A DNA stretch of 64,000 nt from Candidatus Micrarchaeota archaeon (lineage in GTDB: Archaea; Micrarchaeota; Micrarchaeia; Anstonellales; Bilamarchaeaceae): NCBI GenBank assembly GCA_040754495.1, contig JBFMCO010000022.1:1-64000 (forward strand). Direction: 5' to 3'. A program made the translations under genes and the position numbers. This document shows, one piece after another, positions 4,693 through 61,150 of the stretch. Below the pieces are notes generated by a model. It did not search any database, was not told where the DNA came from, and saw nothing but the letters and a program-made list of their open reading frames with translations. Position 1 is the first letter of the stretch. Each line of letters starts with the position of its first letter.

Positions 4693-4894
4693 AGCCCCGT
4701 CGTCTAGTCCGCCTTTTAGGAAAAGGAGGCCCAAACTGGGTCGTTAATCGGCGGTAGGATAACGGTCAAGGATAGGAGGCTCTGGGGGCTTTTTGGCCTC
4801 AACCTTTCTCCGGGCAAAAACCCCGGAAAAAGCCATGAGGAAACCAGAAGGCCCGGGAAACCTCTTGACAGCGGTTCGAATCCGCTCGGGGCTA
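4693..4894 (+). tRNA. tRNA-Gln(CTG) with two introns (D-loop ~4709-4762; 37/38 at 4786-4859)
   Basis: AGCCCCG/CGGGGCT acceptor, GTCT/GGAT D-stem, GGAGG-CTCTGG|A-CCTCT anticodon arm, AGCGG-TTCGAAT-CCGCT T-arm; D-loop junction uncertain by 1-2 nt. Confidence 0.88.
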
Positions 4895-4941
4895 TGCTGC
4901 TTTTTTCCTCTTCATTACGGTCTGGCGCAGGTGGTTTCGGG
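4875..4941 (+). repeat. Direct repeat copy 1 (tRNA-Gln 3' end plus ~47 nt downstream)
   Basis: TTCGAATCCGCTCGGGGCTATGCTGCTTTTTTCCTCTTCATTACGGTCTG recurs at 5894-5960 with a few differences. Confidence 0.92.
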
Positions 4942-5007
4942 CATCCAGTCTCCAGTTTTGGGTGGTGGGGGTGAAAGATATTTAAGTATTCGAAACCTTT
5001 TTCTCGC

Positions 5008-5808
5008 ATGGCATACTGGTTTGTTCAACATGATGTCAAGGCATTCAGGGAACACCCAAATCTTATAGGAAGCACGTACAAAAACAAAGTTGGAAAGATT
5101 AGAAAGGGGGACAAAATTGCGTATTATGCCACCGGTGACATGGTCATCATAGGAACCTTTGATGTAATGTCAAATGCCCACGAGATGAAAAACGACCCTA
5201 AATGGGGGACGCTGTGGGTCCTGAAAATAAAGAAAAGGCACGTGTCGAGGGAGCCGCACGTCCCAATTCAGGAGGTACTAAGGGAGAATGATTTGACTCT
5301 TTTCCCGAAAAGGAAGATAGTCGGAATCAAGCTAAAAGGGCAGACTGCGATTCCGATAGATAAGCAGGATTTCAGAACGATTGAAGGGCAGTTGAAAAAG
5401 CCGCAGCCTACGAATACATTCTTTCGGGAGTCCACAAATGACGAACGGTTGGGGGAACCGGCAGAGCTTAGGGTCATGAGGTTTACACCGACCAACGAAA
5501 TGGGGGTGGTTGTATTGTTTACCTCTTTCATGAAGCAGATGGGATTTGAGTATTTCGACTTTATCAGAAGCGGATTTCCAGATGCATGCGTATATGAAAA
5601 AACTGAAAGCGGGTTGCATAGGAGATTCGTCGAGTTTGAGTATACCGCTTCACAGTTCAGGATGCACCTGAAAAATCCGGTGCATAGACGTATAAAATGT
5701 GACTATGTGGTGTGTTGGGAAAATGATTATCCCCTTTGTCCTGTCAAAGTGATTGAGCTAAAGAGAGTGTTGTTGAAATTAGGCATCTATAGAGAAAAAA
5801 GCTCTTGA
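5008..5808 (+). CDS. EVE-domain plus PD-(D/E)xK-like nuclease, putative modification-dependent restriction enzyme
   Basis: N-terminal MAYW...IRKGDKIAYY...VIIGTFDV EVE/PUA-like pattern; C-terminal SGFPDAC...VEFE nuclease core; visibly more AT-rich than flanks. Confidence 0.75.
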   Translation: MAYWFVQHDVKAFREHPNLIGSTYKNKVGKIRKGDKIAYYATGDMVIIGTFDVMSNAHEMKNDPKWGTLWVLKIKKRHVSREPHVPIQEVLRENDLTLFPKRKIVGIKLKGQTAIPIDKQDFRTIEGQLKKPQPTNTFFRESTNDERLGEPAELRVMRFTPTNEMGVVVLFTSFMKQMGFEYFDFIRSGFPDACVYEKTESGLHRRFVEFEYTASQFRMHLKNPVHRRIKCDYVVCWENDYPLCPVKVIELKRVLLKLGIYREKSS

Positions 5809-5833
5809 TGACCCCTAAACAAAGTGGACCTCA

Positions 5834-5892
5834 GGGCTTTTGGGTGAGGCCTAGCCTTTTGCCCGGGGAAAGGCAGTAGTCAAAAGGCTCGG
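5834..5892 (+). mobile_element. Short palindromic non-autonomous element (tRNA-associated hairpin family)
   Basis: TTTTGGGTGAGGCCTAGCCTTTT...CAAAAGGCTCGG; homologous to the reverse complement of 61086-61150 and to tRNA intron modules. Confidence 0.55.
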
Positions 5893-5893
5893 C

Positions 5894-5960
5894 TTCGAAC
5901 CGCTCGGGGCTATGCTGCTTTTTTTCCTCTTCATTACGGTCTGACTCAGGTGGTCTCGGG
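5894..5960 (+). repeat. Direct repeat copy 2 (degenerate duplicate of tRNA-Gln 3' end, att-like)
   Basis: TTCGAACCGCTCGGGGCTATGCTGC...; lacks T60 and has one extra T plus a few substitutions versus 4875-4941. Confidence 0.92.
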
Positions 5961-58983: not shown

Positions 58984-58986
58984 GGC

Positions 58987-59922
58987 TCAGTCCTTGTGGA
59001 ATACCATGCCATACATGTCATGGTATTCGTCTATCCTCTTCCGCATCAGCGTGGCAGGCACATAGTGGAATCCGGTGAGCTGGAAGATGGAGCTGATTTC
59101 AGGAATCTGGAGGACGGTGACGGCGATGCGTATAAGCCTGGCCAGCTTCTGGACTTCATTGTCATCCGGATGGAGGTCCGTCCTGACGACAAGGGGCGAC
59201 TCCTCGATGGAAATGAGCCTGCCTCCAGGGGGGAGCGTGTTGAAAAGCATGCTGGCGACGTTGCATTTCTCATCCGAGCCCCTGATCCAGTGCATGACGT
59301 AAGACAGGATGGCGGTCCTTACTTCCCCGCCGTCCTCCACCTCGCGGAGGTCCTTTGCGTCCCTGCACTCGAAGCGGACACGCAAGAGCTCCAGCTCCCG
59401 CACCATCAGCTGCATTTTCCGCCCGTCGTCGGAGTCAACGATGTGGAGCGATGCGGGGTGGATGCCCGGGGATACGAAAGGCATGGACTCGATGAGCCTC
59501 TGCATCGCATTCCTCACGTTGGCCCGTGCCAGGCCGAGCATCACTTCCGACATGTCCAGCAGTATGAACTTGAGGGGGAGCTTCGGCACCTGGAGCAGGC
59601 TGTCCTGTGTGGAGAGGACTTCTGCGGACATGCTCACCATGAGGTTAGCGGAAAGGACGCCGGTGCCGCATCCCAGTTCCGCAATCGGGCCGGCCGAATG
59701 CCCTTCGGCGACATAGTTCCTGAGAATCTCGAGCGCAATCGGGTGGTGGCTTTCGCGCATCCATTCATCGTAGCGCGGCGCGAACCTTTCCGTAGCCCGG
59801 AGCACGGTTGCCAGGGTCGGCGGTTTCATGAGACGGGCGTCCGGCGAGCGGCTTATGATAAGCGGCATCGGCCTTCCTGAAGCCATAGAATTGCCGCCTG
59901 CGTCCCCTCCCATTATACCCAC
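58987..59922 (-). CDS. Class I SAM-dependent methyltransferase
   Basis: IAELGCGTG, LDMSEVML, LSYVMHW, LPPGGRL. Confidence 0.82.
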   Translation of the reverse strand: MGIMGGDAGGNSMASGRPMPLIISRSPDARLMKPPTLATVLRATERFAPRYDEWMRESHHPIALEILRNYVAEGHSAGPIAELGCGTGVLSANLMVSMSAEVLSTQDSLLQVPKLPLKFILLDMSEVMLGLARANVRNAMQRLIESMPFVSPGIHPASLHIVDSDDGRKMQLMVRELELLRVRFECRDAKDLREVEDGGEVRTAILSYVMHWIRGSDEKCNVASMLFNTLPPGGRLISIEESPLVVRTDLHPDDNEVQKLARLIRIAVTVLQIPEISSIFQLTGFHYVPATLMRKRIDEYHDMYGMVFHKD

Positions 59923-59962
59923 AGGGATATATGTTCTACCATTTATTTAAAAAGGCTTCCGC

Positions 59963-60919
59963 TCAGGAGGGTTTCTTGAAGCAGAGGCAGCGCATCTCGC
60001 CCCAGTAATCCGGAGGCAGGCCCGGGCCGCGGAGCACCTCGGCCAGGCGGACCACTTCCACCCGCGTCTCGGCCGCGGCCTGCATGTCGGTCTCGGCCAC
60101 CCGGGCTATCCACTTGTCCCTCACCCAGCCGGAAACATCCTCGCTCATGTCGAGCGGGCGGCTTATGAATGCCAGGAGCTTGGCGCCTTCGGAGCCGACG
60201 ACGCCGTAGGGAAGGGGCAGCCATGGGTAGACGTCCATAATTATGAACCGCCCGCCGTCCCTCAGGAGGTCGAACGCATTCGTCATCACGGCCCCCCTGC
60301 TCGCCAGCGTCTGGAAAGAGCCCCACCAGAGGACTATGTCGAACATGGCCGGCTTCACCACCGGGCTTTCCCGGACGAGGCCCTCCATGGAGAGGTCGAT
60401 TGACGCCATCGTGACGGCCTTCCCGTCCGGCCTGATGAACTCCGCCAGGTTCGACCTCGCTATTAGGTTCAGCTCGGGCGACACCTCGTTGGCGAATACG
60501 CGCAGGCCCGAGTTAGCGGTGTGGAGGAGATAGCGCGACACCATCCCGGTGCCGCAGGTGGCATCAAGGATGAGTTTCGCGTGGTTGATGTCAGGCACGA
60601 GGGACCGGAGCTTCATCCAGTTGACCGCGATAGCGGTATACTGGCCCGTCAAATCCATGAAGACGTCGAGGGAGCTCCCGCCGCCCTCGTGCGGGCGGGC
60701 CAGATACCCGCCCGTGGTAACCCGGACGGCCCCGAAGCCTCTTTCGCGCAGGACTTCATCTTCGTGCTGGCTTCCGTTTCCGAAAAGCGCGGGTGATTCT
60801 TCCACAAGCGGGGCAGCGCCGCCGCCTGCGCGGCGCAGGCCGGAGATGGGGACGCTCCGCTCGCCCTGGACTACGAACACGCGCTGGGGCTTCCTGAAAC
60901 GTTCCGGCATATCACCCAC
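59963..60919 (-). CDS. Class I SAM-dependent methyltransferase
   Basis: ILDATCGTG, NEVSPEL, FDIV, LRDGGRFI. Confidence 0.82.
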   Translation of the reverse strand: MGDMPERFRKPQRVFVVQGERSVPISGLRRAGGGAAPLVEESPALFGNGSQHEDEVLRERGFGAVRVTTGGYLARPHEGGGSSLDVFMDLTGQYTAIAVNWMKLRSLVPDINHAKLILDATCGTGMVSRYLLHTANSGLRVFANEVSPELNLIARSNLAEFIRPDGKAVTMASIDLSMEGLVRESPVVKPAMFDIVLWWGSFQTLASRGAVMTNAFDLLRDGGRFIIMDVYPWLPLPYGVVGSEGAKLLAFISRPLDMSEDVSGWVRDKWIARVAETDMQAAAETRVEVVRLAEVLRGPGLPPDYWGEMRCLCFKKPS

Positions 60920-61048
60920 TCGGGACTTTATTAGACTGGAAAGGTATTTAAGTTATTATATATGTCGCGTCTTGGATAATAACGCGTTGCACCCGGAAAA
61001 CAGAACTCGGGCCCGGGGCACTGAACCGGAAACCGGCTGCCGGGGGCT

Positions 61049-61085
61049 GGATGCAGGAAAAAAATAGCGGGGGGTAGATTTGAAC
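61049..61085 (-). repeat. Exact 37-bp duplicate of tRNA-iMet 3' end plus T-rich trailer
   Basis: GGATGCAGGAAAAAAATAGCGGGGGGTAGATTTGAAC identical to 61192-61228. Confidence 0.93.
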
Positions 61086-61150
61086 CCCCAGCCTTTTTAT
61101 AATCGGAATCCTGGCCCCGGAGAAAAAGGCTAGGGTTAACCCAAAAACCA
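61086..61150 (-). mobile_element. Short palindromic non-autonomous element (tRNA-associated hairpin family)
   Basis: Minus strand TTTTTGGGTTAACCCTAGCCTTTTT...AAAAAGGCTGGGG, homologous to 5834-5892. Confidence 0.55.

Follow-up and report, generated by a model that had tools for sequence, protein, structure and literature searches.

A short hairpin-and-tail repeat concentrated in tRNA genes of a Micrarchaeota genome and placed at the ends of their introns

This work deals with a stretch of 64,000 nucleotides from a Candidatus Micrarchaeota archaeon (positions 1 to 64,000 of contig JBFMCO010000022.1, assembly GCA_040754495.1; hereafter the window) and with a short hairpin-and-tail sequence, hereafter the module, that recurs in its interrupted tRNA genes. 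The assembly is a metagenome-assembled genome (MAG) of 1.63 Mb in 72 contigs, with ~60% GC and an estimated completeness of 80%. It is labelled G000, and the window is its contig C22; other genomes and contigs are designated by G and C labels in the same way. We found that the copies of the module form a family strongly enriched in tRNA genes, that their position and polarity follow strict rules, that sites filled in this genome are empty in some of its congeners, and that the genome encodes a splicing endonuclease. The explanation that we favour, as probable rather than secure, is that the module constitutes the ends of small palindromic repeats that form a lineage-specific family in Micrarchaeota, the copies being kept mainly where splicing removes them.

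The module is ~30 nt long and consists of a tail (G, a T-run and GG, or a variant of these) followed by a perfect hairpin of 9-10 bp, the latter comprising five variable outer pairs, a core in which a T-run faces an A-run, and a 3-nt loop. The consensus of the forward form is GTTTTGGG-CCGCCTTTT-CCT-AAAAGGCGG; in the reverse form the whole unit, with the loop, appears as the exact reverse complement of this. A covariance model trained on 37 copies from G000 and applied to the whole 1.63 Mb genome retrieved 39 strong copies. Interrupted tRNA genes were located with an acceptor/T-arm script and by comparison with the genes of congeners. As many as 28 of the 39 copies lay inside tRNA genes, which represent 0.42% of the DNA (expected number, 0.16; P ~4e-58), corresponding to an enrichment of ~170-fold. 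The module was present in 22 of the 39 tRNA genes recognised in the genome, its sites being the D-loop, 37/38 and the T-loop. These counts bear out the proposal, made in an earlier note from the letters of the window alone, that a distinct hairpin mini-element is strongly associated with tRNA genes.

Because the copies in our own alignment had been chosen for perfect stems, counting stem covariation in it would be circular, and this count was not used as evidence. We therefore relied on two non-circular controls, the distribution of flank complementarity and the orthologous tRNA-Lys introns. The genome contains 94 TTTT-N3-AAAA cores, 40 of which have flanks that are complementary at 5 of 5 positions, and the GTTTT/AAAAC tail accompanies 37 of these 40. 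Among the other cores, flank complementarity peaks at 1-2 of 5. This bimodal distribution excludes chance hairpins. In the 37/38 intron of tRNA-Lys, the module is kept in most congeners, with stems reading CCGCC, CCACC, GCGCC, CAACC or CTACC and with G.U intermediates; it is partial or decayed in three other congeners, and in G005 the intron measures 17 nt and is module-free.

The length of the T-run in the tail equalled that of the T/A-run in the stem in 211 of 220 copies (those of G000 and of fetched loci), the equal-run copies comprising 164 with T4, 38 with T5 and 9 with T6. This equality suggests that the tail might form a U.A-U triplex or engage in an alternative pairing with the A-run. 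The simple alternative hairpin, pairing the GGG of the tail with the CCY of the loop, was considered and rejected, since covariation does not keep this pairing when the linker differs.

The window contains at least four tRNA genes (Gln, Lys, Ala and initiator Met, or iMet), as established with the acceptor/T-arm script and through relatives. tRNA-Lys(CUU) (18607-18772, plus strand; acceptor/T-arm search) has a module-free D-arm intron (~18630-18665), delimited with congener genes that have no D-arm intron, and a 37/38 intron (~18681-18736), likewise delimited with congeners. The latter contains a forward module (18703-18737, plus strand; model E 1.2e-9; hairpin 18714-18734) that stops 2 nt before the 3' exon, and its 5' end (18681-18695) is a decayed partner able to pair with this module in the fold. 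tRNA-Ala(UGC) (56229-56398, plus strand; recognised from the sequence), whose D-arm agrees with that of a paralogous tRNA-Ala on contig C4, also has two introns, one in the D-loop (~56246-56303) and one at 37/38 (~56323-56361), the second made of GGAAAC-type repeats. A forward module (56270-56304, plus strand; model E 6.5e-8; hairpin 56281-56301) adjoins the 3' splice site of the D-loop intron, and a degraded partner able to pair with it is found at the 5' end. Between the Lys stem, CCGCC/GGCGG, and the Ala stem, CCAGC/GCTGG, bases have changed on both sides with pairing intact, as the earlier note had observed.

In tRNA-Gln(CUG) (4693-4894, plus strand; acceptor/T-arm search), the exon borders were set by alignment to the 73-nt intronless orthologues of at least nine congeners. 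Its D-loop intron (~4708-4762) carries a module that is in the reverse form in tRNA sense (4706-4740, minus strand; model E 2.6e-5): the hairpin (4709-4729), which has one stem mismatch, adjoins the 5' splice site, with the tail CCCAAAC on its other side. The 37/38 intron of the same gene (~4786-4859) is a different long imperfect hairpin with no demonstrable module copy. A further module (18772-18806, minus strand; model E 4e-7; hairpin 18774-18796) directly follows the 3' end of tRNA-Lys; it has a T6/A6 core and the tail CCAAAAAAC, after which comes the start of the inner arm described below (TTGTTTG and a hairpin). The same arrangement is found at the paralogous tRNA-Lys on contig C14.

Two forward-type variants gave no match to the model. 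Recognised in the sequence by eye, both consist of a tail followed by a T/A-cored stem (CCTAGCCTTTT...) with a loop insert of 19-24 nt. One (5836-5892, plus strand; 19-nt insert) directly adjoins a duplicated 3' fragment of tRNA-Gln (5893-5912), and the other (61087-61149, minus strand; T5 in tail and stem, 24-nt insert) adjoins a duplicate of a tRNA-iMet 3' fragment (61065-61086) together with its T-run. The sequences that the earlier note gave for Lys intron 2 (18706-18736), Ala intron 1 (56273-56303) and, as a reverse complement, Gln intron 1 (4708-4740) were found as described. Of the additional copies it listed, the one at 18774-18805 was recognised by the model, those at 5834-5892 and 61086-61150 share the design by eye only, and the one placed in Gln intron 2 was not retained.

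Introns of full length measure ~100 nt. Followed in the sense of the tRNA, they consist of hairpin A and CCAAAAC, then 3 nt and CUGUUUG, then an inner hairpin (GCAAACCC...GGGUUUGC) and CCGACA and, after a few more nucleotides, GUUUUGG and hairpin B; a longer form of the element, of 140 nt, has a second inner hairpin. The same design was encountered in tRNA-Glu, Asp, Arg, Gln and others, both in this genome and in other MAGs, and near-identical full-length introns are present in tRNA-Glu(UUC), tRNA-Glu(CUC), tRNA-Arg(CCG) and others. The consensus fold of 11 introns, taken from this genome and six others, comprised three hairpins; in 12 of its pairs both partners have changed, and a U.G pair is retained in 9 of the 11. 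Hairpin A with its tail and the second tail with hairpin B represent inverted terminal copies, the stems of A and B often differing within one element.

In every intron, the hairpin was turned toward the exon and the tail inward, with reverse copies at the 5' splice sites and forward copies at the 3' splice sites. Furthermore, the asymmetric inner arm was always in tRNA sense (10 of 10 cases in this genome and ~15 more in other MAGs). Since orientation is bound to position and the interior is co-oriented, forward and reverse copies represent opposite ends of a single directional element. The occurrence of both orientations, which the earlier note had used as an argument for mobility, thus loses its force in that respect.

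Two other structural readings were discarded. A long-range duplex of the whole hairpins A and B as a conserved state does not agree with stems and loops that differ within an intron and are each self-complementary; only the outer 3-5 bp can pair across the two hairpins. A K-turn or C/D-box reading of the CUGUUGA/CUGAUGA motif behind the tail was abandoned because no consistent partner box was found and because the motif is a strand of the inner arm. As a separate observation, three tRNA introns (C4:13960-14030; C59:11930-12000, minus strand; C50:13480-13550, minus strand) contain hairpin-rich inserts (e.g. ...CCCATGGAA..TTCCATAGGG...) that are nested within module hairpins, in either a loop or an arm.

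By hand-threading, a strict bulge-helix-bulge (BHB) motif was obtained for introns in tRNA-Asp (C46), tRNA-Glu (C66 and C58) and tRNA-Arg (C26). In these models, a 4-bp helix comes next after the anticodon stem and pairs positions 32-35 with the last G of hairpin B and three host-matched nucleotides; each strand has a 3-nt bulge, and hairpin A begins directly past the 5' bulge. The outer 3-5 nt of the 5' arm of hairpin A and of the 3' arm of hairpin B are able to pair across as the inner helix, and where the intron lies in the D-loop, this part is taken by a lone 3' arm at its end. The splicing endonuclease of this genome is encoded by an open reading frame (ORF) of 391 aa that matches end to end the three-unit enzyme of ARMAN-2 (PDB 4FZ2; E 1e-132). 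The ARMAN-2 enzyme has a broad specificity and cuts both strict and relaxed BHB motifs (PMC3239211). Removal of the two segments from the window tRNA-Gln leaves the 73-nt intronless gene of at least nine congeners, i.e. excision would restore a canonical tRNA. These data agree with the earlier suggestion that the element resides where BHB splicing, which is predicted here, removes it.

Comparison of filled and empty orthologous sites supports the view, already put forward in the earlier note, that copies are gained at the DNA level. In pyrF, the module represents an in-frame addition of 21 nt in G000 and G018, the site being empty in ten other congeners (2/12 filled). The two filled copies are alike in stems and tail, third codon positions included. 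The empty pyrF alleles already resemble the 3' arm and tail of the module (AAAAG..GGCAAAAA), a likeness that would fit, as we infer, patch conversion from a donor copy. The rpl23-rpl2 spacer measures 10-14 nt in more than 20 congeners; in G000, G172 and G164 the module is present there, and in G006 a decayed copy of it (site filled in 3-4 of ~28 species). The 30-nt variant of this spacer recurs in the D-loop intron of tRNA-Lys(UUU) of G013. Likewise, tRNA-Gln(CUG), which is intronless and 73 nt long in at least nine congeners, has a D-loop module intron in G000, G011 and G112, and G180 has a full-length element at this very site.

The model was also applied to seven sampled congeners, six of which had 4-44 copies per genome, and to a sample of 151 genomes of the phylum, in which other families gave, under strict filters, only 1-2 weak matches. 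BLAST with a 301-nt stretch of tRNA-Lys holding two modules produced matches in 40 of 40 congeners. An exact 26-nt pattern scanned over one genome per species occurred at 96 loci; among the 80 loci listed, exact copies were found in ~28 archaeal MAGs labelled Candidatus Micrarchaeota, Micrarchaeia, Bilamarchaeum or, in a few cases, just 'archaeon', which places the present genome, too, among the Micrarchaeota (DPANN). The copies in MAGs labelled Bilamarchaeum, including LFW-283_2, which has a GC content of 40% (PMC8561730), point to a wider spread. Three exact 26-nt matches, each located behind the same 40-nt block, were observed in the Ruminococcaceae MAG UMGS1591; these are probably coincidental terminator-like palindromes or the end of an unrelated repeat.

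The earlier note had reported no copy away from tRNA loci. Within the window this is correct; in the genome as a whole, however, 11 of the 39 copies lie outside tRNA genes. Two of them directly follow the 3' ends of two tRNA-Lys genes, one adjoins tRNA-Gly after a duplicated 3' fragment of this tRNA, one follows the RNase P RNA (Rfam RF00373, E 1.5e-18, under the gathering score), one a C/D-like small RNA and one a small ORF; one is in the rpl23-rpl2 spacer, one is in frame within pyrF, and three are in contexts without a definable host. All eight copies with a definable host transcript have, in the sense direction, the hairpin first and the tail second. As a side observation on contig C61 (190-340), a duplicate of the final 17 nt of the RNase P RNA lies ~135 nt downstream, the module following the 3' end of the RNA and a second hairpin, with a larger loop, following the duplicate.

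According to the explanation that we favour, the full element would be a directional unit of 100-140 nt made of hairpin A, the tail CCAAAAC, a long inner hairpin arm, the tail GUUUUGG and hairpin B. Copies would be gained at the DNA level through some mobilising activity and would be retained chiefly in stable-RNA genes, because there the splicing endonuclease would remove them as BHB introns. The element would fold on itself, bringing both hairpins next to the splice sites. Only the 3-4 nt beside hairpin B that match host positions 32-35 would be needed to complete the central BHB helix, and the hairpins, or their outer arms paired together, may supply or insulate the inner helix during cleavage. 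If the hairpins do provide the inner helix, few host-specific bases would therefore be required. Internal deletion would leave single forward or reverse modules, so that both orientations would be visible as single modules because internal decay has removed the rest of the element.

Several observations weigh against this explanation. No enzyme mobilising the module was identified, and the junctions inspected showed no consistent short target-site duplication; longer duplications of tRNA or RNase P RNA 3' ends are present beside some copies. A search for an autonomous partner with the same ends, which was not exhaustive, revealed none. The strict co-orientation with host transcripts is unexpected for a simple DNA transposon, and the tRNA-Lys intron of the window displays only a relaxed BHB-like motif, with 1x2 and 2x1 loops, in its minimum-energy fold. 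Orthologous stems stay perfect through compensatory changes, G.U intermediates included, and the pyrF copy is conserved between two species at its synonymous sites as well; both observations point to selection on structure and not pure selfishness. Finally, the two filled pyrF sites, and also the filled spacers, could each result from one old insertion followed by losses.

We considered the possibility that the module is primarily a functional RNA, i.e. a preformed helix by which the splice motif is clamped and insulated for the three-unit endonuclease, or a protein-binding or triplex-forming signal of 3' ends and introns, spread by ectopic gene conversion between tRNA genes rather than through any mobility of its own, its non-tRNA copies being 3'-end hairpins of transcripts. 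This is the most serious of the competing explanations, though we think it distinctly less likely than the one we favour. It would account for the compensatory changes with G.U intermediates in orthologous tRNA-Lys introns, for the exact conservation of 26 nt over many MAGs, including a lineage with 40% GC (PMC8561730), for the constant sense polarity and the conserved U.G pair, and for the equality of tail and stem runs in 211 of 220 copies; it would also fit the observation that every non-intron copy with a definable host follows an RNA 3' end in the same orientation. Yet many tRNA genes and congeners do without the module, as exemplified by the intronless tRNA-Gln and the 17-nt tRNA-Lys intron, and the number of copies varies from 4 to 44 per genome within the genus. 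Furthermore, an in-frame insertion in pyrF or an insertion in a ribosomal protein operon has no obvious role at the RNA level, and the nested insertions in hairpin loops resemble an accumulation of junk.

Another possibility, to which we give slightly less credence still, is that the element is a self-folding, directional BHB introner. Its hairpin-plus-tail ends would serve as half splice motifs that travel with it, possibly held by a U.A-U triplex of tail and stem, as the equal run lengths suggest, and it would spread independently of any transposase, in accordance with the polarity of transcription. Candidate routes would be the ligation to RNA 3' ends or reverse splicing by the endonuclease-ligase pair, a further one being ectopic conversion driven by a homing endonuclease. 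If this were true, the element would itself make new tRNA introns and, occasionally, in-frame insertions in proteins.

A spread entirely at the RNA level, in which excised introns would be re-ligated to or reverse-spliced into other RNAs, reverse transcribed and recombined into the genome, appears improbable. It would explain the strict sense polarity and the fact that non-intron copies start precisely where stable RNAs end (tRNA-Lys, tRNA-Gly, RNase P RNA and the C/D-like small RNA), as would be expected if the 5' end of an intron had been ligated to the 3' end of the RNA. However, no reverse transcriptase domain was found in this genome, the in-frame copy in pyrF has intact gene sequence on both sides, and we know of no precedent for reverse BHB splicing.

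Slightly less probable again, and largely refuted, is the link proposed in the earlier note with ends of the IS200/IS605 type or with REP-like repeats that owe their mobility to a Y1 (HuH) transposase or RAYT. The association of a short palindrome with a conserved adjacent tail does recall REP with its GTAG, and Y1 transposase genes are present in 9 of 40 congeners, one module of G018 lying ~210 nt from such a gene. Yet no Y1 transposase (PF01797) was found in this genome at its 80% completeness, while the module region is matched in 40 of 40 congeners. The flanks of 11 Y1 transposase genes contained different, GC-rich hairpins with other loops and no match to the module model, and the lone module near one of these genes in G018 belongs to the adjacent tRNA intron. 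Lastly, ordinary bidirectional terminators or chance T/A-tract hairpins without special tie to tRNA, an idea favoured by T4-T6 runs inside a GC-clamped hairpin, by two similar tail-free hairpins between convergent genes (C39 and C45) and by the three terminator-like Ruminococcaceae matches, are refuted by the ~170-fold enrichment (28 of 39 copies inside tRNA genes and not at gene 3' ends genome-wide), by the copies inside introns, in a coding sequence and in a ribosomal protein operon, and by the conserved tail and loop and the bimodal complementarity.

Among known systems, the closest is that of Thermoproteales, in which introns have transposed between tRNA genes by an unknown mechanism (Fujishima 2010, as summarised in PMC4090602). 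The earlier note had envisaged an undescribed route to tRNA intron gain; such transposition is thus already known, whereas we found no published description of the module family, a defined repeat with non-tRNA copies, in the literature searched. Both systems involve similar introns in tRNA genes of different identity and at several positions within one genome, a host endonuclease of broad specificity, and a presumed gain at the DNA level by an unknown mechanism. The present family differs in belonging to another phylum, the Micrarchaeota, with a three-unit enzyme, in sharing a defined unit, the 30-nt module of hairpin and tail, and an element with three hairpins, in having copies outside tRNA genes too (within a coding sequence, within the spacer of an operon and behind other stable RNAs, at their 3' ends), and in offering filled and empty sites among congeners. 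The element is a variant of transposing tRNA introns that has a defined modular unit.

REP, BIME and REPIN sequences are also short palindromes accompanied by a conserved motif next to them, present in tens of copies, often as inverted pairs, and with compensatory changes in their stems; unlike them, the module has no cognate Y1/RAYT gene, is concentrated in tRNA introns and not in extragenic 3' regions, and is co-oriented with transcription. Rickettsia palindromic elements and the double-hairpin elements and GC clusters of fungal mitochondria are small palindromes with no known transposase that are found in frame in protein genes and also in RNA genes and introns, where they are tolerated through self-folding. 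The module is unrelated to them in sequence and hosts, and its main refuge is enzyme-spliced tRNA introns, with hairpins at the splice sites. Introner-like elements of eukaryotes are transposon-derived spliceosomal introns whose insertions become introns through what the element brings for splicing. The family described here is similar in that its insertions would become introns by bringing or creating what splicing needs; it differs in using a protein-only BHB endonuclease, in having tRNAs and not mRNAs as hosts, and in the size of its elements (100-140 nt). With miniature inverted-repeat transposable elements it shares inverted termini (hairpin A and tail, tail and hairpin B), though stems A and B often differ.

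The gain of introns by archaeal tRNA genes is an open question, and in a 2026 census of Asgard tRNA introns, for which the transposing introns of Thermoproteales (Sugahara 2008; Fujishima 2010) served as a positive control, the route of arrival is still open (bioRxiv 10.64898/2026.10.13.758758). The module provides a concrete and testable case, with a defined repeat unit, rules for its placement at splice sites, and filled and empty orthologous sites in both tRNA genes and ordinary genes; in addition, the three-unit endonuclease has already been crystallised (PDB 4FZ2).

The genome contains six tyrosine integrases, several of which adjoin tRNA genes. Three of their genes (C58:2232-2732, C46:904-1452 and C44:14367-14870) lie within 0.2-0.6 kb of tRNA genes, and two integrase-adjacent tRNA genes carry module introns, a sign that integration at tRNA genes has been frequent in this genome. 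Tyrosine integrases probably explain the duplicated 3' fragments of tRNAs. Beside tRNA-Gln, direct repeats (4882-4962 and 5900-5981) containing the 3' end of the tRNA and ~68 nt of downstream flank are found 1 kb apart; they are identical over 25 nt and then show 81% identity over 62 nt. Between them, an ORF (5008-5808) encodes 266 aa with a weak match to the EVE domain (E 0.006), and the repeat-bounded interval looks like the remnant of an integrated element (attL/attR). The tRNA-iMet(CAU) gene, with an intervening sequence in its D-arm (61208-61312, minus strand), was recognised by an Rfam match (61216-61273), by the acceptor/T-arm search and by its fold. Its 22-nt 3' fragment, a T7 run and CCTGCATCC are duplicated ~140 nt downstream (61058-61086, minus strand, versus 61208-61229), and the variant located before this duplicate has the same stem as the one at 5850-5892.

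With default settings, ARAGORN found one tRNA in the window, with a wrong identity, and Rfam also found one. Interrupted tRNA genes thus mostly escape standard finders, and the tRNA counts of such MAGs are likely to be underestimates. The GGAAAC-type repeat is a separate intergenic repeat found genome-wide, with 2 of its 18 clusters near tRNA genes. In the window, intron 2 of tRNA-Ala (56323-56361) and the flanks of tRNA-iMet (61000-61060 and 61160-61200) are made up of runs of (C)CGGAAAC-like heptamers. A free-standing LAGLIDADG ORF of 217 aa (17894-18547, plus strand; PF14528 match) ends 60 nt upstream of tRNA-Lys. It is one of eight LAGLIDADG matches in the genome, three of which are in very long open frames (753-1636 aa) and look like inteins.

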